64,000 nt of DNA from a phage. The notes under the pieces are model-generated. The model was not told the origin of the DNA and made no database searches. It saw nothing but the letters and a program-made list of their open reading frames with translations. This document shows, in pieces, positions 20,537-39,304 of the stretch; positions within the stretch are counted from its first letter, which is position 1, and every line of letters starts with the position of its first letter. The stretch lies in the sequence record NC_135728.1. One strand, given 5' to 3'. The translations under genes were made by a program, and so were the position numbers.

Positions 20537-20803
20537 TTGTTGTTATCAACAAGGGGGTCATTTATGTACAAGTCATTTTCAATTTACTCAAGACAGGCGA
20601 AACATTACACAGAGATTCTAATCACTCAGAAAAAATCTGTAGAAGGTGAGTGGGAATATCATCATAAAATGTTGCGTCCAGACTGGGTTTTTGATAGGCT
20701 TATTGCTATGATCCCTCTTGGAGAAGTATACCCTCTGACAGGTCATAGGGATGCTTGGGATTTAATTGATTACATAGATTCATTTAAGGAGCCTAGTGTA
20801 TGA
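20537..20803 (+). CDS. hypothetical protein
   Basis: 88-aa ORF, stop overlaps next start. Confidence 0.4.
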   Translation: MLLSTRGSFMYKSFSIYSRQAKHYTEILITQKKSVEGEWEYHHKMLRPDWVFDRLIAMIPLGEVYPLTGHRDAWDLIDYIDSFKEPSV

Positions 20804-21198
20804 AGATTGAGATCACTAAAGAAGGTAAGAAAGTGTCTGGCGATTATGCAACAGTAATTCGGGATGTAATGTTCGAAGTAACCCAGACTGGTACGTCTAA
20901 GGTTGGTCAAACGGTAAGTGTGCAAGGTAATATTGCCGCAGGTGAAAAGATAATCATCGTGATCAAAGGACAAGACCCTGTGGAAGGAACAGTGGGCCGA
21001 GGAGGCTACCTGTGTATTTCTGAAGAACCTCGTATGCTGGTTGCTGATAACTCCACAGGTAAAAAGCGGGTATGTAACACGGACGAGGTGATGATTATCT
21101 ATCCAGTCAACCCAGATGATCCGGCAACATGGATTGTGGGAAATGAAATCTTCTCTTTAGAAGAGTTATCCTTCCCAGCTCCGCGCTCTGTTCAGTAA
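20800..21198 (+). CDS. hypothetical protein (start of small-gene array)
   Basis: 132-aa ORF with ggag RBS, MKIEIT N-terminus. Confidence 0.45.
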   Translation: MKIEITKEGKKVSGDYATVIRDVMFEVTQTGTSKVGQTVSVQGNIAAGEKIIIVIKGQDPVEGTVGRGGYLCISEEPRMLVADNSTGKKRVCNTDEVMIIYPVNPDDPATWIVGNEIFSLEELSFPAPRSVQ

Positions 21199-21237
21199 TA
21201 ATTTATCTTACCAGGGACGGTAGAAGTAGGAGGTAGC

Positions 21238-21471
21238 ATGAAAGTTAAATTTCTTACAGATTTAGGGTACCCTTCCTTGGTTGACTGTGTTGGTAAAATT
21301 GTGGAAGCAAAACGGCTATCTGCAAACGAGAATGTTGTCATGGTTAAGGGAAAAGATTTATTAGCTGCAGGTGCAGAGTCTGGCAGGGTCTCTCCTGACT
21401 ATACGTATTACCTGTCTTTAAGTAATCTACCAGAACGAGGCGGCAAAGGCCTTGAAGTTGTGGAGGAGTGA
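21238..21471 (+). CDS. small acidic protein, paralog family A
   Basis: MKVKFL N-terminus, GK...VKGKDLLAAGA core, LEVVEE C-terminus; paralogous to 24892 and 25109. Confidence 0.5.
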   Translation: MKVKFLTDLGYPSLVDCVGKIVEAKRLSANENVVMVKGKDLLAAGAESGRVSPDYTYYLSLSNLPERGGKGLEVVEE

Positions 21472-22001
21472 CAGGTATGCTTCTGATTAACTGGGAAGAC
21501 CTCTATGGGGACAAAGACCCTGTTGCGTTTGTTGATCGTAGATGGAGATATACTGAAGAACAACTGGCTGCAAAAAATTTAACTGCAAAACGCAGAAAGA
21601 TCATCCAGTGCAAGTATAAATACGCACAGTTTGCTGCAAAAGTGTCTCCCCAAATCGAGAGCTTTGTGCTTAAATTGTATGACGAGTACCTCAAATTCAA
21701 ACTGGATTTTGTACAGGTATACCGTGCACAGATACGCCCAGATACCAGCATTTGTAGATGGAAGGTTGTTTGTGACGGTAAAGATTTGCCACTCAGCTTG
21801 ACAATTGAGCAGCGTTGGGGGTATCATGAGTGCGGTCTGTATGAGACTTGGGATGTCATTGTAGATCCTGCTAAGTACCTGAACACAGAGGAGCTGGAAT
21901 ATATCAATAAGGTTATTCTCGATATGTTTTTCAGATACACCTGTGAAAACTCTGAGAAAGAACGGGATAATTTTCTTGACACCATCAGCAACCATCTGTA
22001 G
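21468..22001 (+). CDS. hypothetical protein
   Basis: 177-aa ORF coupled to upstream stop. Confidence 0.45.
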   Translation: MTGMLLINWEDLYGDKDPVAFVDRRWRYTEEQLAAKNLTAKRRKIIQCKYKYAQFAAKVSPQIESFVLKLYDEYLKFKLDFVQVYRAQIRPDTSICRWKVVCDGKDLPLSLTIEQRWGYHECGLYETWDVIVDPAKYLNTEELEYINKVILDMFFRYTCENSEKERDNFLDTISNHL

Positions 22002-22031
22002 TATACAATTTAACCTACAAAGGGAGGGCTA

Positions 22032-22268
22032 ATGAGTATAAATGTTGTGCTAATAGGTTACCTGGTAATAGCAGTTATAACAGCGGTATTCTTGACAGGT
22101 ATATGCATCGTGTCTAGACGAAGGGTGAAGTTTGATGATTTTATCACCATCATCACTGCTGCACCTTTTTGGCCTATTGTTATCTTCATCGTAATAATGT
22201 GCCTAGTTGATTACTACAAGAATATCCGTAAGGAGAAAAAGGAGAGTAGGGATGGAGACCGCGCCTAA
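22032..22268 (+). CDS. small membrane protein
   Basis: 78 aa with two hydrophobic segments. Confidence 0.4.
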   Translation: MSINVVLIGYLVIAVITAVFLTGICIVSRRRVKFDDFITIITAAPFWPIVIFIVIMCLVDYYKNIRKEKKESRDGDRA

Positions 22269-22469
22269 AACTGTTTATACTGTTCTTAAAGAGATTGCGT
22301 TCTACGCAGATCTTAGCCAGGCACCTTTATGGGAAAAGAGCATGTATTTAAAATGGTGCGTTAATTTATGGAGACCTTCCAGTGTTTCAAGCCATGTTTA
22401 TTGAGATGCTATCTGGGGTATTGTTACTGGTAGCCATCTTAGGTGGTGCAGTTCTGATGTATAACTATC

Positions 22470-22673
22470 TTGAAAAAGGAGACAGCAATGGCAAAAAATA
22501 AATCTTTAGAGCAGGCTGAAAACCTTCTCCACGAGCTAGTAAAGGAGTGGAAAGTTGAATACTCAGATTTTAATGCACGAGAGGGTGAAGATTATTGGCC
22601 TACGGAGCGCTCAGAGGGCGAATGGTATCAAGATTTTATAGAGTGGTTATATCAGACGTGTGATGAGGGGTGA
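22470..22673 (+). CDS. hypothetical small acidic protein
   Basis: 67-aa ORF with aggaga RBS. Confidence 0.4.
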   Translation: MKKETAMAKNKSLEQAENLLHELVKEWKVEYSDFNAREGEDYWPTERSEGEWYQDFIEWLYQTCDEG

Positions 22674-23131
22674 CGATGTTTGTTAAATATGTAAAAACGT
22701 GCCTCAACAGTCTTGGCAGAGAGCATTGGTACACCTTACTTGAAAAAGGAGAAATTTTAACAAAATCTGGAAAGATAACTTTGATACCCTTGGACGATAA
22801 AGACCCGTCACTCCTTGTCATAGATGATTACGTTACAGGTGTGTCGTACGAGGTCTCTGTGGAGAGGTTAATACGCAGATCTGGAGGTCCTTATGACCGA
22901 AGAGAGTATGTTTTCGATTCTGTTACAGAGAAGGAAGATCCGTCTCTAATGTTCAGGATGGTAATCAGAGATATGAGGTCATCTATAGACAGGATCGTAA
23001 AGGACATTAAGGAGCCTTTTAGGGTAAAAGTTAAGAAGTTTTTTGATTCTAAGATTAACATACTTGCCGTTGTGCTAGGCGTAATTCAACTTCTGTTAAT
23101 TTTGCACTATCTTGAACTGTTGTTTAAGTAG
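22670..23131 (+). CDS. hypothetical protein with C-terminal TM segment
   Basis: 153-aa ORF coupled to upstream gene; hydrophobic C-terminus. Confidence 0.45.
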   Translation: MTMFVKYVKTCLNSLGREHWYTLLEKGEILTKSGKITLIPLDDKDPSLLVIDDYVTGVSYEVSVERLIRRSGGPYDRREYVFDSVTEKEDPSLMFRMVIRDMRSSIDRIVKDIKEPFRVKVKKFFDSKINILAVVLGVIQLLLILHYLELLFK

Positions 23132-23191
23132 TGTGCAATAAGGCACAAAGGATGTGCCATAACTAAATAAACTAAGAAAGAGGTAGAGAGA

Positions 23192-23539
23192 ATGCCAAAG
23201 ATTAAATCGATATTAATGTGGGTAGCTGTTGTGGCTTTTGTAGGATACTGGACTTGGGAAACTGAATTAAAAGATATCGGATATACCAGTCTTGAGAACA
23301 AGGCGTGCATTGGCATAACCGATGCATTCAGGCAAAATGCTATGGATCACGAATGTGTCGATGCAGACATAGATGAGAAACTGTCTAAGGACAAAGACTT
23401 CTACCACGGGTATGCTTTGCTTGATAGTGGAGACACTGTAGAGTTCTGGTCGTGGTTCCGTAAAGATGGAACAATAAAAACAGCAGTAAAGATCTCTAAC
23501 AAAGAGTTAATGCTGTTGCAGCAGAAGGAGGCTCAATGA
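23192..23539 (+). CDS. hypothetical protein with N-terminal TM segment
   Basis: 115 aa; RBS agaggtagag; preceded by palindrome GGCACAAAGGATGTGCC. Confidence 0.45.
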   Translation: MPKIKSILMWVAVVAFVGYWTWETELKDIGYTSLENKACIGITDAFRQNAMDHECVDADIDEKLSKDKDFYHGYALLDSGDTVEFWSWFRKDGTIKTAVKISNKELMLLQQKEAQ

Positions 23540-23823
23540 TCTGGATATCCTATGCTGATGGCACCATGCTGTATACTGCAGGTACCAGATATGAGGTTCA
23601 GGAGAACGATAAAAAATTTATCGTAAGAACATTTGACAAGGACGACAACCTTTTGCTAGAATTAACTTACAAGGTTGGGGATGTATCTAGCATCCAGTTG
23701 GATTGCGGTCATAAAGATAACCCACTCAAGAAACCTGGGGTAGGTAAAGCTTCAGAAAAACGCCTGTCTCGTATTGCAGAAAGCGTTTCTGCACAAAAAT
23801 CTAAGAAGGGGACTAGAAAATGA
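23536..23823 (+). CDS. hypothetical protein
   Basis: 95-aa ORF, coupled. Confidence 0.4.
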   Translation: MIWISYADGTMLYTAGTRYEVQENDKKFIVRTFDKDDNLLLELTYKVGDVSSIQLDCGHKDNPLKKPGVGKASEKRLSRIAESVSAQKSKKGTRK

Positions 23824-24014
23824 AAAACTTACGTTTTAACACTTATTACTACAACACATTGAATGATTTGTATTATATTGTTCGAAGTAAAAGTCCTGAA
23901 ACAGTCCTATTCTGCCGCGAACCTTTCAAAGGGGAGGAAGTAGAGTCTGAGATGAATGTTAGCCATATTACCTCTTTGTTGCTCTCAGGTGCAATGGAAG
24001 AAGCAATATTCTAA
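23820..24014 (+). CDS. hypothetical protein
   Basis: 64-aa ORF, coupled. Confidence 0.35.
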   Translation: MKNLRFNTYYYNTLNDLYYIVRSKSPETVLFCREPFKGEEVESEMNVSHITSLLLSGAMEEAIF

Positions 24015-24033
24015 ACCAGGCGGGAGGGTTTTT

Positions 24034-24219
24034 ATGAAGCACTATTGTCTGTCTGGTAGAATGGGTGCAGATTGTGATTGGGTTTTCTTAAAACTTGTCA
24101 GTATTCGAGAGTTCATCCCAGAGGAAGAGCAAGAAAGTGAGCTGATGTCATGGATCAACCATTACGGTAACACTTTTCGGCATGTTAAGGTGGAAGAGTT
24201 GCCAAGCGAGGCTGATTGA
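24034..24219 (+). CDS. hypothetical protein
   Basis: ORF track 23956..24219; internal ATG at 24034 with RBS gggaggg is the likelier start. Confidence 0.35.
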   Translation: MKHYCLSGRMGADCDWVFLKLVSIREFIPEEEQESELMSWINHYGNTFRHVKVEELPSEAD

Positions 24220-24314
24220 CTATGATTGCATCAATATTAACGTTTATGGGCGGCGTGGCATTCGGATTCATTGTTTGCCTGTTTATAGTGATTATGTCTA
24301 TGCGAGGCTGAATT

Positions 24315-24611
24315 ATGAAACTTTTTGAGTGGTTTAAAAAGTTTAAATATAAAGCTGTAGCCATCGTGCCATGGTCCATTCAATGGGTGGACGATGAGGG
24401 ATTACCAATTCCAGGTGATAAAGACACGGGATACTGGATCATGCTTGAAAACGGGTTTGGAAAGCGAAAATATACGTGCACAAACTCTACTCGATCTGCA
24501 CTTAATAGAGTGCCTGGTTACAAACTTATGGTTGTGTGGAAAATGTCAGGGGTGCCTCCAGCTAATGCTCAATTTCTTACTGACAATCCAACCACGGTGG
24601 AGGGAGATTGA
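24315..24611 (+). CDS. hypothetical protein
   Basis: 98-aa ORF. Confidence 0.4.
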   Translation: MKLFEWFKKFKYKAVAIVPWSIQWVDDEGLPIPGDKDTGYWIMLENGFGKRKYTCTNSTRSALNRVPGYKLMVVWKMSGVPPANAQFLTDNPTTVEGD

Positions 24612-24895
24612 TAATGAAAAAGATTAACAGTGGTGAAGTTGAGTTTAAACTTGTCGGGAAAGGCACTTACTGGGAAGTTCGTCAAAAGGTATATTTGTTC
24701 GGTCTTATTCCCTATTGGTCTAAATTCTACTGGGGAGCTAACGAGTTGGGAAGATACGCCACCAAATCAATGGCACTTATTGGTATAGCAGAGTACATTG
24801 CAGCCAGAGATAGGGTTGGAGACACTTATTACTATACTGCGGACGATATTCGTAACAGTGTTTACGTCCCACAACCACCTGATGGGGACCGTTGA
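24608..24895 (+). CDS. hypothetical protein
   Basis: 95-aa ORF, coupled. Confidence 0.4.
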   Translation: MIMKKINSGEVEFKLVGKGTYWEVRQKVYLFGLIPYWSKFYWGANELGRYATKSMALIGIAEYIAARDRVGDTYYYTADDIRNSVYVPQPPDGDR

Positions 24896-25119
24896 TGAAA
24901 GTTAAAGTTTTAGATTCAAGCTTCTATATTGGTCAGGAGCCTTTAGTAGGGAAAGTGTTTACTGCTGTCCCTAACGAAGATTATCCTGACCTTTTAAAAA
25001 TAAAAGGTGCAGATCTTATTGCCGCTGGTGCATCTCAGGACTGCTTTGACAGTCAGTGGACCTACAACTTTGCCCTAGGTGAGGATGTAGAGGTAGTGGA
25101 GGACGATCATGAAGGTTAA
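24892..25119 (+). CDS. small acidic protein, paralog family A
   Basis: MKVKVL...GK...IKGADLIAAGA...VEVVED; paralog of 21238 and 25109. Confidence 0.5.
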   Translation: MMKVKVLDSSFYIGQEPLVGKVFTAVPNEDYPDLLKIKGADLIAAGASQDCFDSQWTYNFALGEDVEVVEDDHEG

Positions 25120-25363
25120 AATTCTTGATTCTAACGTCTACTTGGGACAATCCTTCCTGAAGGGAAAGGTCGTTCCTGCGGTATACTTTGAAGGGTTGCC
25201 GTGGGATGATCCTGTGCGGCAACATCACAGTTATGTAGGCCACAACGTGGTGTTTATCTTGGGATCAGACCTGATCACCGCTGGTGCACCTGAATATTAT
25301 TTCGGGGAAGAGTCCTATTATGCCTTTGGGGTAGGGTCAGATGCGGATATTGTAGAGCTGTGA
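25109..25363 (+). CDS. small acidic protein, paralog family A
   Basis: MKVKIL...GK...SDLITAGA...IVEL; paralog of 21238 and 24892. Confidence 0.5.
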   Translation: MKVKILDSNVYLGQSFLKGKVVPAVYFEGLPWDDPVRQHHSYVGHNVVFILGSDLITAGAPEYYFGEESYYAFGVGSDADIVEL

Positions 25364-25375
25364 TGGGTAACCGTT

Positions 25376-25774
25376 GTGAAAAATAAACTGTTTAAAGTTA
25401 CAATGAAAATTCGCGGAGCTTGGAGCGTAAAGCAAGGGCGTATTCCGGAATTTGAGAAAGACTTCTACGTAGTCTCCACCTCGGAGGAGGCTGCATGCTG
25501 GCAGGCTGGCTATGCCTATGCAAGAACCTGGTACGAAGGATACCAGACCGGGGGATATGACGGAGAAATTATCAGCAGAGGTGTGGAAGAAATTAATGTG
25601 TTGACAAGTGAAAAAGTTTTTGTTATAGTGCATCCAGATTCCAGAGTGAAGCATTACTGGAACGCCAGAACAAAAACTTGGACACCGTTTGCAGATTCTG
25701 CTACGCCACTTTTAAACCAGAAAGCTCTTGACTCTGCCCCAAGTTATGGGATTGTTGAAGAAAAGCTAAACTGA
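25376..25774 (+). CDS. hypothetical protein, paralog family B
   Basis: C-terminal HPDS...YW...WTP motif shared with 27581..27976. Confidence 0.45.
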   Translation: MKNKLFKVTMKIRGAWSVKQGRIPEFEKDFYVVSTSEEAACWQAGYAYARTWYEGYQTGGYDGEIISRGVEEINVLTSEKVFVIVHPDSRVKHYWNARTKTWTPFADSATPLLNQKALDSAPSYGIVEEKLN

Positions 25775-25791
25775 AACAGTGAGGTACTAAC

Positions 25792-26082
25792 ATGATGGAT
25801 TTAGTTCTGGACACGGATAACACCGGAGAGTTTAAAAAGGATGGTGTAACAAGCGTTGACCAATCCTTCCCTGCCAAGATTGACTCAAAATGGACCTACA
25901 AGTTCGATGGAGAGATCTTCGCAAATGATGAGAAGGTTGTAGATGCTGCAGCCATTTTGAACGCTCTAGGGTACGACCCTGTGAATTCTTTGATCAAGGA
26001 TCCTGTTGAGTTTGCAGAGTATGTTCGAAAAATGGCAGATCTTGCTGTGGATATTTTAAAAACTATCGACGACAAGCTGTAA
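25792..26082 (+). CDS. hypothetical acidic protein
   Basis: 96-aa ORF with gaggtac RBS. Confidence 0.45.
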   Translation: MMDLVLDTDNTGEFKKDGVTSVDQSFPAKIDSKWTYKFDGEIFANDEKVVDAAAILNALGYDPVNSLIKDPVEFAEYVRKMADLAVDILKTIDDKL

Positions 26083-26126
26083 AAACTGTTGACACAACGC
26101 TTCAGATTTAGTATCATTGTTTTCAA

Positions 26127-26152
26127 AGAGGGTTTGGTTCCCTCTTCTTTAA
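26127..26152 (+). terminator. rho-independent terminator-like hairpin
   Basis: GAGGG-TTTGGTT-CCCTC then TTCTTTAAAA. Confidence 0.45.
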
Positions 26153-26164
26153 AAGGAACACGTT

Positions 26165-26482
26165 ATGCAAATTGAAATCACTGGCAACGTAGAAATCACT
26201 GAAGGTATGGTGTCTTTCATTTCCCACAAAATGTCTAAGCTGGAGCGTTTGCACCCATCTGCCAACTATGCACGTGTGAGTGTAAAAGTTGAAAATGATC
26301 ACCAGGAAGTTATGGCGTTCATTTTTGACAATTCTGGAAAAGAAGTTATTGCCAAGGCTAAAGGCAGTGATGCTTACGAGGCAACTGACCGTATGGTAGA
26401 TGTTGCAGCACGTCAGCTGGCTAAATGCGGTGGAAAGAAAGGTAAGGGGAAAGGCAAAGTAAAGATTGACTTTGGAGAATGA
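26165..26482 (+). CDS. hypothetical protein
   Basis: 105-aa ORF; glycine/lysine-rich basic C-terminus. Confidence 0.45.
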   Translation: MQIEITGNVEITEGMVSFISHKMSKLERLHPSANYARVSVKVENDHQEVMAFIFDNSGKEVIAKAKGSDAYEATDRMVDVAARQLAKCGGKKGKGKGKVKIDFGE

Positions 26483-26619
26483 GGTGCTACAATGGGTGTG
26501 ATTAAGAAATTAGTCCCAAATGTAGAGATTGCATGCTTTGAAATTATGTTTGCAATCGCAGTTGTAGTTAATGTGTTAGGTTACGGCTATTAATATCAAA
26601 TAATTGAGGAGACCTCTAA

Positions 26620-26889
26620 ATGAAAATTAAATTATTCAAAACCGAGCTGGCAGACAAAAACTGTGGACTGGTTGAAGGCATGATTGTCGAAGCACAACCA
26701 GTTGACTATATGAAGGTGGTTCGTGATGCCCTGGGTGAAGGTTTTGATCTGATGGAGCCAGCTCTGCGAGAAGATGTTATCGAGATGGCTAAAAAGCACA
26801 CACCTGAAGGCATGGTGGTGTTTGTTGCACCGGGTAACGGAGAAGAGTTGATTGTAACTCCTGATGTGTATGAGATTGTAGAGGAATAA
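26620..26889 (+). CDS. small acidic protein, paralog family (VEE tail)
   Basis: MKIKLF N-terminus, YEIVEE C-terminus; RBS gaggag. Confidence 0.45.
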   Translation: MKIKLFKTELADKNCGLVEGMIVEAQPVDYMKVVRDALGEGFDLMEPALREDVIEMAKKHTPEGMVVFVAPGNGEELIVTPDVYEIVEE

Positions 26890-26980
26890 TCCTGCTTGGA
26901 TTAGCAGGCTTCCTCGATAAGGAAGGTTTGTAATTATTTGTGGGAAAGGAATCCCAATCTCTTACCAGAGGTGATACTAT

Positions 26981-27244
26981 ATGATTGTTTATTTTAAAAC
27001 TTCAGGTGGATACCCTGATTCTCAAAGCTTGATCGGAAAAACGTGCACAGCATACTCACCTCTTGATGAGGAGGTAGGCGATATTCTACGAAATATGTAT
27101 CGGATTGATCCTCAAGAAGCTTTTGATCAAAATCTTGTATTTGTCAAGGGCTCAGACATGAAGTCTTTGGGAGCATTCCCTGAAGCAGATGATGATGCCG
27201 TTTATTCGTTCATGACTCCTTTTGAAGCTATGGTTATTGGGTGA
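26981..27244 (+). CDS. small acidic protein, related to family A
   Basis: GK...VFVKGSDMKSLGA core resembles family A. Confidence 0.4.
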   Translation: MIVYFKTSGGYPDSQSLIGKTCTAYSPLDEEVGDILRNMYRIDPQEAFDQNLVFVKGSDMKSLGAFPEADDDAVYSFMTPFEAMVIG

Positions 27245-27248
27245 TAAT

Positions 27249-27581
27249 ATGAAAGTACGCTTTATTGGTGAAACAATTCCTGTGCATCTCCGGTCGCCTG
27301 AGGATTCTGCAGATCTTGCATCTCAAAAGGCGAGAGGCTATGATAAGAAAGTAATCTCAACCGATGTAGTGCTTGAGGCTACTAGTCTACCTGACCCCGC
27401 TGCATTCTTTAATCATTATGGATACTATTTCAGCAATCTGATGAATATCGGTGAGCTTGTGTTTATTAGTGGTGGAGAAATTGTTAGCAAGCTTGGCGGC
27501 GATCCGGATGTCTTTCATGAAACCTGTCCTTTTGCATTTGTGGTGGGTTCAGATGTGGAAGTTATTGAGGAGGTGCGGTAA
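27249..27581 (+). CDS. small acidic protein (VEVIEE tail)
   Basis: ORF track 27222..27581; MKVRFIG start at 27249 more consistent with family N-termini. Confidence 0.45.
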   Translation: MKVRFIGETIPVHLRSPEDSADLASQKARGYDKKVISTDVVLEATSLPDPAAFFNHYGYYFSNLMNIGELVFISGGEIVSKLGGDPDVFHETCPFAFVVGSDVEVIEEVR

Positions 27582-27976
27582 TGGTAAGCCTATACCGTGT
27601 TGAGTATAGCTCAGATACTGTATACAACGTAAGAAGCAAAGATCGCAGCGACAGAGTGCAAGAAATGTATGTTCTTGCCGACAGTCCGTTATCTGCAGCG
27701 TTCAAGGCAGGGGCTCTTGCATCTCGTTGGAAATTTGAAGGCGGATCTTTCTATGAAGAAACCCTTGAAGATTCTGTTGTTATTTCTTCTGTAGAGGTTT
27801 CAGATGACTACGAAGGGAAAAAGTTCGTAATGCGGCACCCACACAGTAACATTGCGTACTACTGGGATGTTCTGAACAACGAGTGGACCCCAGATCTTCA
27901 GAAGGCTACTGTGCTAACACCGTTTTTGGCAGATAAGTTCCCACCAGAAGGTAATTTATCCGCACTGTTTCAGTAA
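27581..27976 (+). CDS. hypothetical protein, paralog family B
   Basis: RHPHS...YYW...WTP motif shared with 25376..25774. Confidence 0.45.
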   Translation: MVSLYRVEYSSDTVYNVRSKDRSDRVQEMYVLADSPLSAAFKAGALASRWKFEGGSFYEETLEDSVVISSVEVSDDYEGKKFVMRHPHSNIAYYWDVLNNEWTPDLQKATVLTPFLADKFPPEGNLSALFQ

Positions 27977-28052
27977 TTTTCTTGCACACAGGTGTTGACA
28001 ACACCAACCCTGTGTGAAATAATACCTTCATCTTAACAAGACAGGAGACTGA

Positions 28053-28313
28053 TTGATGAAGATTAAATTGAAAAACCTTGAAACGGCAGAGATTCAGGAC
28101 GGTGTAGATTTCCGTTCTAAAGATGGTGACATCTTAGAGGTAAATCTTCCAACCTACGAGCTGATTAAAGGTTTTGGCAACGTTCAGGAAGAGGATATTC
28201 CAGAAATTCTTATGATGTTGATTCTTGACGGAACTGTGTTTGTAGGTGAAGGTGAGAACGCTATTGCAATCCCAGGCCATTTTTATGAAGTAGTTGACGA
28301 AGAGGTGCTGTAA
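28053..28313 (+). CDS. small acidic protein (family with MKIKL N-terminus)
   Basis: 86 aa, aggag RBS, C-terminal EVVDEEVL. Confidence 0.45.
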   Translation: MMKIKLKNLETAEIQDGVDFRSKDGDILEVNLPTYELIKGFGNVQEEDIPEILMMLILDGTVFVGEGENAIAIPGHFYEVVDEEVL

Positions 28314-28664
28314 ATGAAAGTAGAAATTACTGGTTTTGATGTTAGTGTGGTTCCGGAAGATATTTTAGCTAACTTACCGGAAGGTTTTGGTAACGGTGTT
28401 GTGGTGGATGCTGTTCCTCCTACCAAAGACATTCTGCTGCAGTATGGTGTAGCAGAGGAAGATGTCGATAAAGTTCTTACAATGATGGCAATCGATCGTG
28501 TTGTCGTTGTTAAAGGTCTCGATAATTTTGAGAGTGATCCTCTGATTATTCGCGGAGATGACTACAAAATCATCGATAATGAAGGCCAAGAGTTCTATGA
28601 GCCTTGTGCAGAAGATATTCTTAACTTATTACTGGAAGCAGGCACCGAAGAGGAGGACGAATAA
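28314..28664 (+). CDS. small acidic protein
   Basis: 116 aa, MKVEITG N-terminus, acidic tail. Confidence 0.45.
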   Translation: MKVEITGFDVSVVPEDILANLPEGFGNGVVVDAVPPTKDILLQYGVAEEDVDKVLTMMAIDRVVVVKGLDNFESDPLIIRGDDYKIIDNEGQEFYEPCAEDILNLLLEAGTEEEDE

Positions 28665-28993
28665 TGAAGATTGACCCGTTACTGAAGGCTCGTGCAGAAA
28701 AAGCGTACACCATTAAGTTGACCAACTTGGTTCCTACTTGTCATCCGGATGTAGGTTGGCCAGAAGGTTTGGTGGAGGGAACTGTAACAGCTGCATACCT
28801 TCCTAACATCAAATACCTCATGGAAATCTTGGAGCTGGATGAGGAAACGGCAGAAGAGTTCCAGTTGGACATGAAACAAAGTGGGACTCTGGTTATTCAC
28901 GGGTGGTACAATACTAAAGATGCAGAAGATCCTCTGGTAACTTCTAATCTGGCATATGAAATCTTAGGACCTTTGAACCTGGAGGAAGACTAA
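28664..28993 (+). CDS. small acidic protein
   Basis: 109 aa, coupled (ATG overlaps upstream stop). Confidence 0.45.
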   Translation: MKIDPLLKARAEKAYTIKLTNLVPTCHPDVGWPEGLVEGTVTAAYLPNIKYLMEILELDEETAEEFQLDMKQSGTLVIHGWYNTKDAEDPLVTSNLAYEILGPLNLEED

Positions 28994-29280
28994 TGAAAGA
29001 TCTGGTTAAGATTAAGATTAAAGATACCAATGGAGAACTCAGCCATTTTGGAATTAATGATGGTGACGAGCTGATCGCACACCTGCCTACCAAGGAGGTT
29101 GTAAGCAAAGCAGTTGCCGGAGAAGAAGCTGCAATGCAGGCTGCAGGTGTGGATGAAAACTATGTAGCTATGTGCATGTGCCGAGATCAGGTTGTTCTGT
29201 ATAAAGCGTATCGACCAAACGGAGCCACGGAGTGGCTTGTATTCCGACCCGAAGGATATGAAATCTTAGAGGCACTGTGA
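28993..29280 (+). CDS. small acidic protein
   Basis: 95 aa, coupled. Confidence 0.45.
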   Translation: MKDLVKIKIKDTNGELSHFGINDGDELIAHLPTKEVVSKAVAGEEAAMQAAGVDENYVAMCMCRDQVVLYKAYRPNGATEWLVFRPEGYEILEAL

Positions 29281-29369
29281 TAAATCTTGCCAAGGTTGCA
29301 ACGGCACTGTTAATTATTTGCTGGTCAGTAACCTTAACACTGTGTCTTGTATTTCAGTGAGGTGCTTGT

Positions 29370-29633
29370 ATGAACATCCTGATGTGGGTTATAGCAGTGG
29401 CGTTTGTTGCATGTTTTTGCTGCTGGGTTGCGGTGAGGATTTCTGTAGCTACCCTTCGGAAGTTGGGGTTCTCAGAATGGGATATTAATATCCTTTCTTT
29501 TCGCAATGAAACAATCTCAGCCGCCCTGCTTTGTAAGAAATTCAAGTGGGAACCTTGTGAGGTCATGAACTATCTAAGAACAGGTGATATTCCTGAAAGA
29601 TTTAAAAAAGTTCTTGACGGCAAGGATAAATGA
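29370..29633 (+). CDS. small membrane protein
   Basis: 87 aa, N-terminal TM (ILMWVIAVAFVACFCCWVAV). Confidence 0.4.
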   Translation: MNILMWVIAVAFVACFCCWVAVRISVATLRKLGFSEWDINILSFRNETISAALLCKKFKWEPCEVMNYLRTGDIPERFKKVLDGKDK

Positions 29634-29788
29634 CAGTATAGTGACTAACAAGAGGTGAGGAGTGACTGATTTTACTGAAGCTTTAATGATGGCCTTGTCT
29701 GTTTTAGCGCTATCGGTGTGTTTTGGGGCGTTATTCACATCTCTGGTTAAAGTTTTACATACAGTATTATTACCCAAGGAGCGCAGTA

Positions 29789-30040
29789 ATGACGAAGATT
29801 GACTTGAATGCTGGCGACCATGTTGTTGTCAAATGCATCGGAGATTATCTTGGATTCACAATCGGCAATACTTATGAGGCGGTAGTGGCGAAGGTTTATC
29901 ATGATAAAGTCCTCAGTCTTGTATTTGACTGCGATGATGATGGGGATGACCGATACGTCTGTGAGGTGCTGGCACGAGACGATAGTGAAGACCAGAAATT
30001 CCTGGTTATTGAACTGAACGGTATTTTTGTAGAACGTTAA
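29789..30040 (+). CDS. hypothetical acidic protein
   Basis: ORF track 29723..30040; ATG at 29789 after aggagcg RBS is the likelier start. Confidence 0.4.
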   Translation: MTKIDLNAGDHVVVKCIGDYLGFTIGNTYEAVVAKVYHDKVLSLVFDCDDDGDDRYVCEVLARDDSEDQKFLVIELNGIFVER

Positions 30041-30068
30041 TTTAAAACAACATAAGGAGACTCTTACT

Positions 30069-30374
30069 ATGGCTAAATCTAAAGTTGAACTGTTCACCTC
30101 TCTTCCTTCTGACACTGCAGAACGTGATCGCCTTCGCAAAACAATCGAAGAACTGGTGGAACTCCAGCTTCAGATTAAAGATCTGAAAGATGCCATCAAG
30201 GATATCATTCTTGTTGAGAAGCAGGATCATCTGTATTCTCCTAAATTCATCAAATCTTTGGTGGCTACAGAGTTTGATATCCGCTACGAAGCTGAAAAAC
30301 GTCGCGCTAAGATTGAAGAAGAGGTTGAGCACATGTCTGAGGCAGACATTCTGTTCAAACGCTCTGTAGAATAA
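30069..30374 (+). CDS. hypothetical coiled-coil protein
   Basis: 101 aa, aggaga RBS. Confidence 0.45.
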   Translation: MAKSKVELFTSLPSDTAERDRLRKTIEELVELQLQIKDLKDAIKDIILVEKQDHLYSPKFIKSLVATEFDIRYEAEKRRAKIEEEVEHMSEADILFKRSVE

Positions 30375-30381
30375 TATGGCA

Positions 30382-30410
30382 GAGGGGCTACGGCCCCTCT
30401 TTCACTATTT
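30382..30410 (+). terminator. rho-independent terminator
   Basis: GAGGGGC-TACG-GCCCCTC hairpin then TTTCACTATTT after stop of 30069..30374. Confidence 0.5.
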
Positions 30411-30426
30411 GCAAAAGGAACCAGCT

Positions 30427-30753
30427 ATGAGAATGCCAATCACTGTGAAAGAGCTAAATGAACGTGATGCAGGTGGTCTATGGCCTGCACGAAAAATCCG
30501 CTGCGTCTATATGAAAGAGAATCTTGAACATCTTGATCAACAGATCAAGGTCGGTGATATTTTCGAGGTCTTCTACTCCAATCGTCGCAACTGGGAAACC
30601 ATTCAGCCTTCTGGTTTTGTTCTTGCCAAACTTGACACTGGAGAAGTGATTATCCCTGGGTTGGATATTGTCTTCGAAATTATCCAGGAGTGGGATCCAG
30701 ATAAGATTAGATACGAAGAATTATTCGGTAAAGGTATTATCAAACCTGTGTGA
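30427..30753 (+). CDS. hypothetical protein
   Basis: ORF track 30376..30753 starts inside terminator hairpin; ATG at 30427 after aaggaa RBS is the likelier start. Confidence 0.45.
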   Translation: MRMPITVKELNERDAGGLWPARKIRCVYMKENLEHLDQQIKVGDIFEVFYSNRRNWETIQPSGFVLAKLDTGEVIIPGLDIVFEIIQEWDPDKIRYEELFGKGIIKPV

Positions 30754-31061
30754 GGTGGATTATGTCTACAAAGGCGGCTAAATACTCCTATATGCCATCA
30801 ACCTCTGCAGAGGTAGACTTTAGTTTCGATGTATTTCCACTGTTTGAGGTGGTTCTGGCATACCCTACAATACTATCTACTCCTGAATCACTTGTGCCTG
30901 TTAAGTTGCAGAACGCTATGCATTCCATGCACTACAACAATAAATGTAGGCACAGATGGTGTCAGGACGAGGAAAAAGATTTGGATAGTTTGAGGGATTT
31001 TGACAGTCACCTTTTGACACCTTTCAGCTACTCCAACCTTGATAAGCCCTCATGGGTATAG
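30750..31061 (+). CDS. hypothetical protein
   Basis: 103-aa ORF, coupled. Confidence 0.4.
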   Translation: MRWIMSTKAAKYSYMPSTSAEVDFSFDVFPLFEVVLAYPTILSTPESLVPVKLQNAMHSMHYNNKCRHRWCQDEEKDLDSLRDFDSHLLTPFSYSNLDKPSWV

Positions 31062-31085
31062 CAAAATATCAAATTTAAGACACCT

Positions 31086-31112
31086 AGGACGCTCTGTGGC
31101 GTCCTTTTCTTT
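31086..31112 (+). terminator. rho-independent terminator
   Basis: GGACGC-TCTGT-GGCGTCC hairpin followed by TTTTCTTT. Confidence 0.6.
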
Positions 31113-31275
31113 ATCTGGTGCACGATTGCATACCTTGGGTAGTTAATCTCATTACAGAGCGTTTAAGAGCTTCCTACAAACAACTCCATATTTCGAGCGT
31201 AGCGAGAACGCACGTCCGTTTTGACCCAAATCACCATACGCTCGGATTTTAACCAAACCCTCGCGGCGTTTCTGT

Positions 31276-31305
31276 TGACACATTGCCGCTCCAGTGATAG
31301 TATCC
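31276..31305 (+). promoter_or_regulatory. sigma70-like promoter TTGACA-N17-TAGTAT
   Basis: Hexamers read directly upstream of small ORFs at about 31324. Confidence 0.45.
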
Positions 31306-31323
31306 ACACATAGTCTGGAGAAT

Positions 31324-31425
31324 ATGGAGTGCACAATGAAAACATTGTCCGAAGTTTTGGTGGTGATCCTGATGATCATTACGTCCATAGCGGCTGTTGC
31401 CGGAATACTCACGGGTGGAACATGA
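31324..31425 (+). CDS. small hydrophobic peptide (about 33 aa)
   Basis: Below ORF-track cutoff; ATG after ggag RBS; translation MECTMKTLSEVLVVILMIITSIAAVAGILTGGT; stop overlaps next ATG. Confidence 0.3.
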   Translation: MECTMKTLSEVLVVILMIITSIAAVAGILTGGT

Positions 31426-31634
31426 TAAACACACATGCATCTGAAGAGACATCCAAAGGAGTGACTATATGTCCCTTGACTGAGCCAGTGCAAGAGGAAA
31501 ACTTCGATTCTGAAGATTCTCCATCTTTGCTCCAGGTAGATCCTGAGGCTGATGACCTAACGTGGGAAGACATCGTAGATATCTGGTTCTCTATTATGCC
31601 TGAGCACGAAGAGTTCAGGGGTGGTAGACTATGA
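31422..31634 (+). CDS. hypothetical acidic protein
   Basis: Internal ATG of ORF 31329..31634 overlapping upstream stop (ATGA); acidic C-terminus. Confidence 0.35.
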   Translation: MINTHASEETSKGVTICPLTEPVQEENFDSEDSPSLLQVDPEADDLTWEDIVDIWFSIMPEHEEFRGGRL

Positions 31635-31755
31635 AGCACCGAGCCCACACAGGTTCCTCATGCTAAAGCATGGCCTGAAGAGGCAAACGTGTATAATTCC
31701 AGCGTATTGGGACGTATAAAACCCAGTTCACACTCTCATTTCCAGAGGAGATTTC

Positions 31756-31971
31756 ATGAAGATAGAAATATTTGGTGGGGCTGACAACACTCGTGGCCTG
31801 ATTTACCTTGAATTCGATGAATCATACCTGCCAGAGGTGTTAAATATGGACTCTGTTGCTGAGGCTTTGGGAGTAAGTCCTAAAGATCTCCACTCTGGTG
31901 CTGAGATTGATGGTTGGGAGGAGACCATGAACATCGATTTCAGTGAAGTAGGGGATGAACCACTGGACTGA
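31756..31971 (+). CDS. small acidic protein (MKIEIF N-terminus)
   Basis: 71 aa, RBS gaggag; last plus-strand gene before the non-coding region. Confidence 0.45.
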   Translation: MKIEIFGGADNTRGLIYLEFDESYLPEVLNMDSVAEALGVSPKDLHSGAEIDGWEETMNIDFSEVGDEPLD

Positions 31972-32199
31972 CACACAATTAGTTGCCCGGCTAAAGTGCT
32001 GGGAGCACCCATAACACATCTTTCAACTAAATTTCCTACCACCACAATCACTTACCTCCCACACATGACTGTTTGCTTGTTTAGTGAGCAGTCATGCCTT
32101 GACATTCTTGCCTATCCTGATAAAATTAAGTTCTTCTCTTTTCTTTTACCGAGTAATTCGGGTTTTCTGTTCTCTTCGGTTTGAAGGGGTATGGAGATA

Positions 32200-32840
32200 C
32201 ACCTGAGTGAACAGGGTGAACAACCGAACCATTGGCTATGGCATTAGCATGGCGAAGCGGACGGGTGACGAAAGAGGGGCCGGAGGACACCAGTCACTGC
32301 CATATGATATATGGGTGATAACCTGAAGAGTCTGAATAAGTGTTTAAGTACCAGTCAGAGGAAAAGGTGAATGGTAGCCGAAGGGGGAGGGGGGTTACCT
32401 GCTTCTGTAAACATGCATCTGAAATACTACTTTAGATAACCTGAACCTGCCTTTCTGACAAATATTCCCTATTAAACTTGAATTATTTATAGAAAATACC
32501 ACAACACCACTTAAGTCTTTGATTTTACACACAAATCTTACAGATATTAAACCTCTCTATTTAACATACCTGTAACATATACTATACTCCACCTGTCTGA
32601 TCAATTTCCCCAACTACATCCCCATATTTTCCCTGTCTGTACTACCCCTGCCCCGCCGGGAGTCCCGTCATATCTGGCTTTCCAGCAAATATCACACCCA
32701 CAAATATCATCACCTGAAGAGGGTTTCATCCCATAATACATGCCTTACCTGAAGAGCGCTTCATATACCCCGTAAATTTTTTAATTGACCCCCTCCCCGC
32801 CGCCGGAGGGGTTGGCTTTTCCCACACAAACCTGAAGAGT
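32200..32840. repeat. dispersed ACCTGAAGAG repeats in non-coding region
   Basis: ACCTGAAGAG read at about 32322, 32712, 32750 and 32830, with ACCTGA half-sites at about 32205 and 32440. Confidence 0.5.
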
Positions 32841-33394
32841 CAGCCAGAAATATCTGAACAGCCAGTTATACCACGATTTTGTGCTTGTCCTACAGGAGTG
32901 CTTCCCTGTCAGGAGCCGGTAGCGACTGGAGTGCTGCCAGGCGGACGAAATGGGAATACTTCTCATTCTTATAACAATTCTCAAATATCGAGGCAGTGAG
33001 GCAAATTAATAGGTGAGGCCGTTCACACAGTGGCACAACATTTGCAACCTATCTTGTGGGATTGAATGAGAATACCTATCATTGTGAGAACTGTTATCAT
33101 TACGGGCAATTTAACATAATACCCATTATGCGCACCACTGGCGATACATACAGGGATTTATAACATGAGTTACTGTTTACGTATATAACAATTATATTTC
33201 TTACTATTTGTGTGGGATATAGTTAGCAGCCGATAGATTAGATATTGACCTGCAGACTTCCAACCGTCTAGACGTCTAAACGCCCACACAACAAGGTTTA
33301 TACATACATTACTGAATGTAAACAGGGCCGCAAAAATGCTACCATACAAGATTGTAAATTTTTCATGCAGCACTTGACAAAGAGGAGAAAAACT

Positions 33395-33476
33395 TGTCTG
33401 ACACTTTAGACACAATAGTGACATAATATGACACCTTTGACACACTGGACACATTAAACATAATTGACATGCCTGA
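33395..33476. repeat. array of (T/A/G)GACA(C/T) hexamers at about 10-bp spacing
   Basis: tgacac, agacac, tgacat, tgacac, tgacac, ggacac, tgacat read in series in AT-rich context. Confidence 0.5.
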
Positions 33477-33509
33477 CTGTTTACATAGCTAACTATTTAC
33501 TAAAAAATG

Positions 33510-33850
33510 ATAAGCCATGCCATTCGTTTGCATGATAAAGATTAGCAAGTTAATAATCTTTCGCTGGCTATGCCAGGTGACCTTTGGTCACCCCTTCGGG
33601 TGTTTCTATGACATAATATAAAAGCAGGGCAACTATTAGCAGATCATAGTTGCCTTGCTTGTTAACACCCTTGAGACGAAGGCTTTGCCTGAGTTTATGT
33701 CATGATTAACTAAATACAAGGCAACTATGATCTGATTAATAGTTTGCAGACAAACTATCACGGGGGTGATGGTTACTGCTTTTATATTATGTCGCGACTC
33801 CGTCGCGCCATGCCATTCGTTTGCATAGTTGCCTTATTGTTACGAATAAA
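33510..33850. repeat. inverted and direct repeat complex
   Basis: 18-bp perfect inverted repeat GACATAATATAAAAGCAG / CTGCTTTTATATTATGTC (about 33611 and 33777); direct repeat GCCATGCCATTCGTTTGCAT (about 33515 and 33808); palindromes GGTGACCTTTGGTCACC and GGCAACTAT...ATAGTTGCC. Confidence 0.55.
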
Positions 33851-34452
33851 ACAATTGCATTGTTAATGATTTCTTATCTTTCTCTTAGTCATCTAATGAT
33901 TCCAGTCAGTCTAGTAATGTACAGTAAACATTAGACGACTAAAGATTTCCCTGTTTATGATAACTCACCGTGATAATTTCAGGCTGTTTACTAAAAATGT
34001 TGACACCTAAGCTGATTTATGTTATGCAGTTTACACGAATAATTATTTTATGCAGGTATTGACTATTCCGTTATTCTATGGTTGGAATAAATACTTAGCA
34101 GACTATAGAATGGTGAGCGTACGTAAATTCTGAGATCTGGCGGCTATAGTTATACTCGATTTTTCACGTAGAACACGCTTTTGTGAGTGTGTAAGTGTAT
34201 GACTTATAAAGATTTTTAGTTGTTGACAAGATATTGAAGATGTGCATCAGGTTAAATTTTGTGCAATAGCGGCATTACGTGCAATTCTGAGAGAGAAAAC
34301 GGGTAAAAATGGCCCTGCTACCACAAGATGAAAGATTATGCAATAGTTATTTTTATATGTATATTTGTACAGTAGGGTTAATTGCTGGCTTGTTGATTAT
34401 TCCACTTGCCAGGTGGGGCCGTTTGTGGTAGGAGAAATACAGACAAAAAGAA

Positions 34453-34480
34453 AGGGGCCTTTTAAAGCCCCTGATAGTTT
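34453..34480 (-). terminator. rho-independent terminator (minus strand)
   Basis: Minus-strand hairpin AGGGGC-TTTAAAA-GGCCCCT followed by TTCTTTTTGTCT after stop of 34491..34910. Confidence 0.5.
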
Positions 34481-34490
34481 AGTTAAGAAA

Positions 34491-34910
34491 TTATAATGAT
34501 TCGTATATTTCAAAAATCCGATTTGCCAGGTCGTTACGGTAGCGGAATTTTTCCTCACGTTTGATCATCAGATCTTTAAAGCCATATTCTTTAAGCACTT
34601 CATTAACTTTATGGCGGCATACCTTCATATTATCTTGTGCGTCACCAATAAACTTGTTGCTATGGTGCATGGCTTTAATTTCTTCTTCCAGGACCAGGGC
34701 AACTATGCGGACCGGATCAAGCTGATAGGCGGTAACATCAATGCGGCATTGTAAACGGCTTTTTACGTCTGCCACCGGATATACTGCAACCTCTTCCCCG
34801 TCAACATTGACAATAATTAGTTTACCATCGATTTCGAATCCTTTCGCCGCCGGACCGTGACAAAAAGCGTTATCAAAGCTATATGCCGGATTATTAGATT
34901 TAATGTTCAT
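34491..34910 (-). CDS. hypothetical protein
   Basis: 139-aa ORF with agagg RBS and upstream promoter. Confidence 0.5.
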   Translation of the reverse strand: MNIKSNNPAYSFDNAFCHGPAAKGFEIDGKLIIVNVDGEEVAVYPVADVKSRLQCRIDVTAYQLDPVRIVALVLEEEIKAMHHSNKFIGDAQDNMKVCRHKVNEVLKEYGFKDLMIKREEKFRYRNDLANRIFEIYESL

Positions 34911-34959
34911 GGTGTTTTTACCTCTTAGTTAATTTTCTTACAACTTCCCTTCAAAAAAG

Positions 34960-34988
34960 AATATAGCAAAACTGCCGATCCTTGTCAA
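34960..34988 (-). promoter_or_regulatory. sigma70-like promoter TTGACA-N17-TATATT with palindrome over -35
   Basis: Minus-strand hexamers read directly; ATCCTTGGTTGACAAGGAT palindrome spans the -35. Confidence 0.5.
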
Positions 34989-35055
34989 CCAAGGATAGCA
35001 TAATTTTTATGTGATCAAGGGGCTTTATTGCCCCCTGATCGTGCAACTTGTTGTA

Positions 35056-35319
35056 TTATTTGTTACTCATCCAGTTTTCCCAGGCTGCCTGATAATCTGC
35101 CTCACTGCGGCGGATCTCTTCTTGCTCTTCAAGTCGGATCTCTTCTTCCAGGTACCCCAAGATATCGGCTTTCTTGGTCTGGCGTAACATCCAATCATCT
35201 TTTTTACGGGTAAAGATCTTATATGCTTTCTCGCAAACCTCTTTTTTGCTACCTTTTTGGACTTCAAGAACTTTGTAGGCCATGTACTGAACTAGTTTAA
35301 GCTGATCAAGACGTTTCAT
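35056..35319 (-). CDS. hypothetical protein
   Basis: 87-aa ORF with agagg RBS. Confidence 0.45.
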   Translation of the reverse strand: MKRLDQLKLVQYMAYKVLEVQKGSKKEVCEKAYKIFTRKKDDWMLRQTKKADILGYLEEEIRLEEQEEIRRSEADYQAAWENWMSNK

Positions 35320-35379
35320 GATGTTTACCTCTTTGTGTGGTTCTGATTAGTGGGCCTCCCGGCCCGTGTCATTATCTTA

Positions 35380-35652
35380 TTACTTACGGCGGCAGAATTC
35401 AAGCGTTTTTAATTGATAATCTTCCTCAGCCTGGAGTACAACCGCCTCGATCATTTCGTTGGCATTGTTGAAGCCATACCCTTTAGCGAACTCGTCCGCA
35501 CCACCTTCGTGATCATGTTCTGCGTTCATCGCTTCCACAAAATGGAATTCCAAATTGTTGAGGTAGGGGCTTGATGTGCCGTCTTCTTTTTCGATGAGAT
35601 CCCAAATAGCATTAAAACGTGATTCGACTTCTTGATTAATCCAGCTTGACAT
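35380..35652 (-). CDS. hypothetical acidic protein
   Basis: 90-aa ORF; upstream promoter and UTR hairpin. Confidence 0.45.
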   Translation of the reverse strand: MSSWINQEVESRFNAIWDLIEKEDGTSSPYLNNLEFHFVEAMNAEHDHEGGADEFAKGYGFNNANEMIEAVVLQAEEDYQLKTLEFCRRK

Positions 35653-39303: not shown

Positions 39304-39304
39304 T

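Follow-up and report, generated by a model that had tools for sequence, protein, structure and literature searches.

A tandem array of small genes in an rV5-like coliphage holds three paralogous families, one of them a predicted SH3-like barrel shared with other phages

The 64,000-nucleotide stretch of sequence record NC_135728.1 analysed here (hereafter the window) belongs to a Vequintavirus, an rV5-like myovirus of Escherichia coli, and carries on its plus strand, at positions 20800–31971, an array of 38 consecutive, tightly packed small genes, or 41 if the count is begun at 19715. Phages of the rV5 type are among the commonest coliphage isolates and are candidates for therapy, but for roughly two thirds of their genes there is no explanation. 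The 11.2-kb interval that holds the array has full-length counterparts at 96–97% identity in over 100 Vequintavirus genomes of ~136 kb each, its gene order recurs in the annotations of phages MaxTheCat, FFH2 and MaxBurger, and in annotated relatives nearly all of its genes are labelled 'hypothetical protein'. A sequence-only reading of the window had described about 40 packed plus-strand genes of 60–130 amino acids, attributed them to repeated duplication and divergence of one or a few small domains, and tied this pattern to host takeover or anti-defense functions. We find that duplication and divergence took place as proposed in about a third of the array, where 12 of the 38 genes form three families, A (five genes), B (five) and C (two), and that 26 genes are left as singletons. 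Family A is predicted to be an SH3-like barrel that also occurs outside the rV5-like phages, and published transposon sequencing (Tn-seq) of a related phage points to a host-specific role for some family members. Taken together, our statements on the families, their fold and their evolution are made with high confidence.

The array was delimited from the list of open reading frames (ORFs), from curated starts with Shine-Dalgarno (SD) sites and from syntenic annotation; all 38 gene starts are plausible, most of them with GGAG-type ribosome-binding sites. The dense packing described earlier is evident, with 13 of the 37 junctions overlapping or abutting and 20 spaced by 10 nucleotides or less; the products range from 29 to 174 amino acids with a median of 88. 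They are indeed acidic: the isoelectric point (pI) lies below 5 in 20 of the 38, and its median is 4.95 as against 6.15 for the 26 long ORFs elsewhere in the window. The sole array gene with a Pfam domain, at 26165–26482 on the plus strand, encodes a homologue of the HPF/RaiA ribosome hibernation factor (PF02482 at 1.8e-12). Apart from this homologue, searches of Pfam, NCBIfam, PADLOC and PDB sequences with families A, B and C and the singletons gave nothing meaningful, and no catalytic or known domains were seen in the array products.

Relatedness within the array was assessed by three approaches that agree with one another: an iterative hidden Markov model (HMM) search with jackhmmer over the full set of 469 ORFs from the window's six frames, in which spurious ORFs act as internal decoys; an all-against-all hhalign comparison of 38 orthologue-enriched profiles (703 pairs); and searches with deeper profiles of A and B. 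Family A consists of 21238, 24895, 25109, 26981 and 27249 (genes are named here by their start positions), family B of 26620, 28056, 28314, 28664 and 28993, and family C of 25403 and 27581. The paralogue sets listed in the earlier reading are real by BLASTP, namely 21238/24895 (the latter given there as 24892) at 8e-7 and 24895/25109 at 2e-13, 25403 (given as 25376) with 27581 at 3.5e-7 and an hhalign probability of 96.8%, and, beyond the array, 52030/52366 on the minus strand. Pairwise hhalign values within family A run from 70 to 99.6%, except for 26981–27249 (6.2%), a pair joined via other members. A profile built from non-rV5 sequences only recovers 24895 (3e-23), 21238 (6e-18), 25109 (5e-15), 26981 (1e-7) and 27249 (3e-6), and nothing beyond these five genes in the window, the next ORF having E = 1.3. 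Family B pairs are weaker (85%, 81%, 49%, 37%, 36%, 24% and 22%), with seven of the ten possible pairs ranking directly after the A and C pairs.

The singletons, in contrast, resemble neither one another nor the families to a significant degree, and the central GK...KG.DL.AAGA motif that had been thought widespread in the array is limited to the five genes of family A. It is nonetheless conceivable that all ~40 genes descend from one or two small ancestral domains and have diverged past sequence recognition. Such descent would suit the enrichment of an N-terminal motif, MK(V/I)x(I/L/F), already noticed in the earlier reading and found in the form MK[VI][KERD][ILFV] in 9 of the 38 array genes as against 1 of 422 other ORFs in the window; two singletons that carry it, 20800 and 31756, also score highest among non-family genes when compared with the B profile (~17). 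Yet none of the 26 genes has an hhalign partner above 12.7%, even with orthologue-enriched profiles, the deep A and B profiles match nothing else in the window at E <1, and several singletons differ clearly in kind, among them the HPF homologue, small membrane peptides and proteins of 130–174 amino acids, which together make such a common descent extremely improbable. Seven of the nine motif carriers belong to family A or B, in whose models the motif is predicted to form strand 1 of the barrel.

The family A genes, all on the plus strand, lie at 21238–21471 (77 amino acids; found by BLAST, jackhmmer and hhalign, and of a subfamily common to gp40 of the temperate phage mEp021), 24895–25119 (74 amino acids), 25109–25363 (84 amino acids; it overlaps the 24895 gene by 11 nucleotides and has a short insertion in the β2–β3 loop), 26981–27244 (87 amino acids; a helical-looking β2–β3 insertion, and a profile match at 3e-6, or 1e-7 without rV5 sequences, with hhalign at 96.1%) and 27249–27581 (110 amino acids, with an insertion of ~45 amino acids). 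Their consensus of ~70 amino acids reads MKVKLLNDGGY..G..vGKVv.A..[variable loop]..v.I.G.(D/E)LI.AGA...F...Y.F..G.E.EvvEE. An AlphaFold2 (AF2) model computed with 24895 as query, at a mean predicted local distance difference test (pLDDT) score of 89.5, is an SH3-like mini-barrel of five antiparallel strands that can be superposed on SH3, KOW and PsaE domains, and on the strength of this model family A is predicted to be an SH3-like five-stranded β-barrel. The likeness is one of predicted fold only: sequence identity to SH3-like folds (PsaE, Spt5/NusG KOW, eukaryotic SH3 and the retroviral integrase C-terminal domain) is 4–25%, and neither the ALYDY/WW peptide-binding signature of SH3 domains nor the KOW motif is evident in the sequences. 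Consistent with this, Pfam hmmscan at E <=1 returned no SH3 or KOW model for any A or B member, ten distant family A members described below likewise gave no SH3/KOW Pfam match, and the family including its distant members has no Pfam, NCBIfam or PDB sequence match. Weak PDB matches to designed ankyrin proteins were rejected, as they only mirror the 'LI.AGA' helix-turn.

Family B comprises the plus-strand genes 26620–26889 (89 amino acids; hhalign 49% to 28993 over 85 columns and 22% to 28056), 28056–28313 (85 amino acids; jackhmmer and hhalign to 28314), 28314–28664 (116 amino acids; jackhmmer and hhalign, with an acidic C-terminal extension), 28664–28993 (109 amino acids; hhalign 81% to 28314) and 28993–29280 (95 amino acids; hhalign to 26620, 28664, 28314 and 28056). 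The AF2 model of 28056 (pLDDT 88.9) has the same SH3-like order of five strands as that of family A, with helices at residues 34–38 and 45–57 inserted between strands 2 and 3, the very loop that is extended by insertions in A members 25109, 26981 and 27249. At E <=1 Pfam holds no family for the B members, the match of 28993 to LRAT being sub-threshold only. The label 'sigma 54 modulation factor' given to the orthologue of 26620 in APECc02, JLBYU08 and other GenBank records was rejected, since the protein has no PF02482 match and the real HPF homologue is the neighbouring 26165–26482; the label is probably an annotation carry-over error. A structural neighbour of family B in Vibrio phage Vc1 was set aside when a sequence search (tblastn) did not confirm it.

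A comparison of shallow profiles of A and B is not significant. Deep profiles of the two families align collinearly in hhalign with P = 1.1e-3, a probability of 20% and a score of 23.1, which exceeds the 8.5 +/- 1.9 (maximum 15.0) of 150 column-shuffled controls, the 12.8 of the reversed profile and the scores of all other gene profiles (15.8–17.1 at most). Together with the identical predicted strand order and the position of the B insertion in the insertion loop of A, this leads us to regard homology of A and B as likely, though unproven, and if the two are truly related a single SH3-like domain accounts for 10 genes. The alternative, to which we give an appreciably smaller share of belief, is that the families are unrelated and that their common features (an MKxKL start, hydrophobic β-strands and an E-rich end) converged under translation-initiation preferences, the demands of small β-rich folds and SD sequences embedded in C-terminal codons. 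It draws on the low hhalign probability and a local alignment that spans the first 32 columns only, on neighbour lists of the A and B models from Foldseek searches of BFVD that barely overlap, and on the fact that SD sequences inside the coding sequence explain part of the acidic termini.

The last point can be quantified. At 17 of the 22 tight junctions (12 nucleotides or less) the SD sequence of the next gene lies inside the upstream coding sequence, where it reads as acidic residues, GAGGAG being Glu-Glu, as in GTGGAGGAGTGA (VEE and stop) and GAGGAGGAC (EED); Asp and Glu among the last five residues average 1.73 at tight junctions and 0.94 at loose ones. Because downstream SD sites sit in the last codons of upstream genes, the acidic C-termini are partly a by-product of translational coupling, and the acidic tail that the sequence-only reading regarded as shared thus has a double origin, since in A and B it also forms and follows strand 5. 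Gene 26620, however, retains the ending YEIVEE although no downstream gene lies within 91 nucleotides, which counts against convergence of this kind. As a general caution, acidic C-termini of tightly packed phage genes should not be taken as a homology signal.

Family C is made up of the plus-strand genes 25403–25774 (123 amino acids, with an alternative GTG start at 25376) and 27581–27976 (131 amino acids), related by both BLAST and hhalign. With them the gene order A-A-C occurs twice, as 24895-25109-25403 and as 26981-27249-27581. A neighbour-joining tree with bootstrap, used as a test of block duplication, gave no resolution (25109+27249 at 0.47, 24895+26981 at 0.04).

The array genes had already been deposited and clustered piecemeal in PHROGs, where end-to-end matches at 1e-32 to 1e-76 link family A to phrog_5009, 13920 and 13661, family B to phrog_11868, 12359, 12155, 12457 and 12794, and both members of family C to phrog_7379, all of unknown function. 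This resource splits A into three clusters and B into five, and assigns no function, fold or relationship to them. The full-length, 74-position profile of phrog_5009 matches 21238 (1.2e-35), 24895 (2e-38) and 25109 (3e-32), finds 26981 at only 1.2e-4 and does not match 27249, which has its own phrog_13661. What is new here is the merging of eight PHROG clusters into two families, with family C besides, along with the SH3-like fold assignment, the cross-phage distribution, the recurrent tandem amplification, the A-A-C pattern and the link to Tn-seq phenotypes.

Beyond the genus, the three families differ in distribution. A word-indexed search of 5.8 billion proteins with the A, B and C alignments returned essentially only the rV5-like orthologues of each paralogue, and tblastn with 24895, P0083 and 28056 found Vequintavirus records only. 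An exhaustive HMM search with family A gave 44 matches at E <=1e-3, among them ~30 distant proteins of the same size from outside the rV5-like phages; these are 63–87 amino acids long, align over their whole length and have in common the consensus MKVKLLNDGGY..G...GKVv.A...G.ELI.AGA...F...Y.F..G.E.EvvEE, and in P0102, P0105 and P0126 two or three family A domains are fused. In these searches families B and C turned up solely in rV5-like phages. Two giant proteins, P0093 (5191 amino acids) and P0113 (4388 amino acids), show short matches to the family A profile in several repeated stretches, which are probably repetitive β-strand motifs rather than true homologues.

Genome organization around the distant copies is informative where it can be seen, several contigs being too short for gene context and a related-locus search with a narrow alignment yielding two viral loci and one bacterial locus only. 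In the temperate mEp021 group the family A gene is gp40, among small genes between Q and the holin gene; a single prophage copy of this type is present in 23 of 5426 complete E. coli genomes, the other small genes beside it have no counterparts in the window, and we found no literature on gp40. In the T4-like Citrobacter phage Merlin the family A gene lies between genes 32 and frd, where gene content varies. The mEp021 group and Merlin are the cultured carriers, and further members come from uncultivated phages. Ten non-rV5 loci were examined (L003, L005–L009, L012, L013, L015 and L016), L012 being the same Moellerella prophage gene as L008 as judged by identical ORF sequences. Adjacent copies or fused domains are present in five of the ten, with three fused domains in L006, three adjacent copies in L009, two adjacent copies each in L013 and L015 and two fused domains in L016, and the family A domain has therefore been repeatedly amplified in tandem. 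Separately, a Dcm-like cytosine methyltransferase gene of the window (59008–59802, minus strand) is 54% identical to mEp021 gp33 (L003, 3511–4269) and is a second gene, besides the family A member, common to rV5-like and mEp021-group phages.

Gene 21238 groups with mEp021, P0097 and P0101 at a bootstrap value of 0.90, which points to a separate subfamily and, as judged from the tree, probably to horizontal exchange. The duplications are old. Gene order is preserved in L004, a divergent metagenomic contig of rV5-like type, with positional A, B and C orthologues that are 29–74% identical to those of the window, more so than to any other paralogue, and with synonymous sites saturated; since each paralogue has its own positional orthologue there, the duplications predate the split from this lineage. 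Within the genus the pooled ratio of non-synonymous to synonymous substitution rates is low in all three families (0.10–0.11 in A, 0.06–0.07 in B and 0.05–0.09 in C), indicating functional genes under purifying selection. Gene content is nonetheless variable: 25403 is absent from L004, which has an unrelated gene in its place and an extra gene inserted as well, and in some rV5-like contigs (P0011 and P0017) a single chimeric gene with a 24895-type N-terminus and a 25109-type C-terminus bears witness to recombination between neighbouring paralogues in which one copy was lost. The seven genes 22670 to 24315 (22670–24611; locus L017) are naturally missing from phage Bas54 (MaxBurger) and are thus dispensable in nature.

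The same phage provides functional data, having been subjected to transposon sequencing in the HIDEN-SEQ study (bioRxiv 10.1101/2025.11.20.689424). Its array proteins are mostly 92–100% identical to those of the window, with three at 82–88% and the depleted ones discussed here at 97–99%. On E. coli K-12 all of the Bas54 array genes were scored 'non-essential' or 'intermediate', and when K-12 was compared with a uropathogenic isolate, in a single comparison, insertions in a few of them were depleted on the isolate (bioRxiv 10.1101/2025.11.20.689424). The second A-A-C cassette stands out, with zero reads and an adjusted p of ~0 for each of bas54_0152 (26981, family A; log2 fold change −7.16), bas54_0151 (27249, family A; −6.17) and bas54_0150 (27581, family C; −6.77); the other family C member, bas54_0157 (25403; −2.14), and the singleton bas54_0140 (30762; −5.48) were also depleted at an adjusted p of ~0 (bioRxiv 10.1101/2025.11.20.689424). 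For bas54_0140 the authors went further and validated it, with the MoxR ATPase bas54_0063, as required against a predicted defence system, DS-28, to which the knock-out was reported sensitive (bioRxiv 10.1101/2025.11.20.689424). By that published work its counterpart in the window, a gene of 99 amino acids at 30762–31061 on the plus strand whose product is 99% identical, would count among counter-defence genes, being dispensable on K-12 and needed against the predicted system DS-28; it shares the array with families A, B and C but is a singleton unrelated to them. The tie to anti-defense drawn from sequence alone, taken to include host-specific functions, thus gains support for five genes (26981, 27249, 27581, 25403 and 30762); the remaining family members show no significant depletion.

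The array, with its ~40 small accessory genes, occupies the distal portion of a transcription unit that runs rightward. Along the plus strand, nucleotide-metabolism genes are followed by genes for a PhoH-like ATPase, a ClpP-like protease and an N6-methyltransferase, and the run of small genes begins at 20245, immediately 3' of the last two. All eight sigma-70-like promoter matches at 11 of 12 positions are on the plus strand, and two of them, known by consensus match only, fall in the rare intergenic gaps, at 26089–26117 upstream of the HPF gene and at 27995–28023, with a TG extension, upstream of the family B run. An intrinsic-terminator-like hairpin lies at 31086–31105 on the plus strand, just 3' of the gene at 30762–31061. 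From the promoter-like matches and the genome position we infer that the region may be transcribed early by the host sigma-70 RNA polymerase, and the packing suggests that the genes are translationally coupled.

The plus-strand run converges on a larger block of ~57 small hypothetical genes on the minus strand (34500–54000). The block includes the paralogue pair 52030–52362 and 52366–52620 (together 52030–52620, minus strand; BLAST 1.4e-7, with phrog_11936 and phrog_12544 cross-matching) and two further pairs, 53270/53494 (1e-4) and 39793/46113 (7e-4); these are unrelated to A, B and C, 52030/52366 giving no match to the A or B profiles. Several of bas54_0123-0134, near the inner end of this block, were also depleted on the clinical isolate (bioRxiv 10.1101/2025.11.20.689424). 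Between the two blocks is a gene-free gap of ~2.5 kb (32000–34500) that is rich in repeats: a motif, GCAGGGCAACTAT / ATAGTTGCC, in direct and inverted copies at 33619–33660, 33711–33736 and 33824–33842, perfect 18-nucleotide inverted repeats at 33610–33627/33776–33793 and 33640–33657/33717–33734, and a perfect 20-nucleotide direct repeat at 33514 and 33807. It also has a strong terminator at 32790–32811 and no family match in an Rfam search. Because the equivalent ~2-kb intergenic region of Bas54 tolerates no transposon insertions (HIDEN-SEQ, bioRxiv 10.1101/2025.11.20.689424), the gap probably serves as an origin or as some other cis element that is essential. The window holds no tRNA genes. 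Its DNA polymerase gene, which MaxTheCat annotates as a two-piece join, contains a group I intron at 54232–54467 on the minus strand (RF00028, 64.7 bits, E 4e-14). In database records, 18 entries named 'Campylobacter phage' (MG0656xx, host C. jejuni) are 90–100% identical to this coliphage-type array, and their host labels look doubtful.

The explanation that best fits these observations, at a probability of roughly 0.6, is that the array consists of duplicated small accessory genes with a role in host range or counter-defence whose products act as binders. That the array as a whole is a host-specific accessory toolbox of this sort, rather than a set of core functions, is about an even call. 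Under this explanation the small genes would be transcribed early from sigma-70 promoters and translated in a coupled manner, and their products, which have no catalytic motifs, would bind components of the host or of its defences stoichiometrically. A scaffold role may fall to the conserved barrel, whose variable β2–β3 loop would give each paralogue its own specificity, with family C as a partner protein duplicated and specialised alongside the barrel domain; the cassette 26981-27249-27581, the C paralogue 25403 and the singleton 30762 would then matter on the uropathogenic isolate and be dispensable on K-12. This scaffold mechanism is tentative, and we think it somewhat doubtful. A bolder version is unlikely: that A and B are one phage-specific SH3-like binder scaffold that has diversified in the β2–β3 loop and undergone tandem amplification in numerous unrelated phages, and that A-A-C, with 24895-25109-25403 as the older copy, is a multi-protein counter-defence module against an immunity system of uropathogenic E. 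coli in which the barrels are specificity adaptors for C.

Several points weigh against the accessory-binder explanation. Homology of A and B lies below standard significance thresholds, at an hhalign probability of 20%, and early expression is read from promoter-like matches and genome position. In the Tn-seq data 21238, 24895, 25109, 28056, 28314, 28664 and 28993 are not depleted on the isolate relative to K-12, the value for bas54_0153 (26620) is non-significant (log2 fold change −2.78, adjusted p = 1.0), and a gene may be depleted on a clinical isolate for reasons other than defence. The bas54_0150-0152 cassette is neither discussed nor matched to a defence system in the preprint (bioRxiv 10.1101/2025.11.20.689424), in whose Extended Data Table 8 the sheet 'resampling_K-12_vs_CFE303' shows the command line of sample '311'. 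The sheet that follows holds identical numbers, and the deposited file may lack the CFE303 comparison. A polar or coupling effect on 27581 could also account for the depletion of 26981 and 27249, given a 4-nucleotide spacing and a 1-nucleotide overlap; against polarity, the phenotype seen for 25403 is not reproduced by insertions in 24895 and 25109 upstream of it, and the authors of the preprint argue against widespread polarity (bioRxiv 10.1101/2025.11.20.689424).

A conserved, housekeeping-type target would agree equally well with the strong purifying selection and with a motif that is kept across unrelated phages. The barrels could also be KOW-like or ribosomal-protein-like modules that act on host translation or transcription, together with the hibernation factor, as part of a general takeover; we consider this quite improbable. 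Less credible still is the idea that the acidic proteins counter restriction as DNA mimics in the manner of Ocr, ArdA or Arn, even though they are small, have pI values of 4.0–4.8 and come from a region that is probably early: the predicted fold is a compact SH3-like barrel and not an elongated DNA-like surface, no Pfam match to the Ocr or ArdA families was found at E <=1, and Vequintavirinae are 'exceptionally susceptible' to restriction-modification systems (PMC8594841). The same susceptibility implies that the array is not a broad anti-restriction battery, and counts among the points against the accessory-binder explanation.

By this analysis 38 anonymous genes are reduced to three families and a set of singletons, one family gains a predicted fold and a distribution across phages, and the families are tied to Tn-seq data that their authors left undiscussed, in which an A-A-C cassette of three genes is no longer dispensable on a clinical isolate, subject to the caveat of polarity. 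A region of 'dark matter' is thereby turned into a few concrete and inexpensive experimental questions.

Small accessory-gene blocks are familiar in large phages, and in large virulent phages blocks of small early accessory genes include the hyperplastic regions of T4, T5's pre-early genes and the host-takeover module of SPO1. The array resembles them in its dense, small and mostly acidic genes, in being non-essential on the laboratory host, in its putative sigma-70-type promoters and in the few host-specific or anti-defence roles among its genes, and in the T4-like phage Merlin a family A member sits within the gene 32–frd variable region itself. It differs from the T4, T5 and SPO1 modules in having no sequence homology to their characterised genes, and in the amplification here of one barrel domain five, possibly ten, times.

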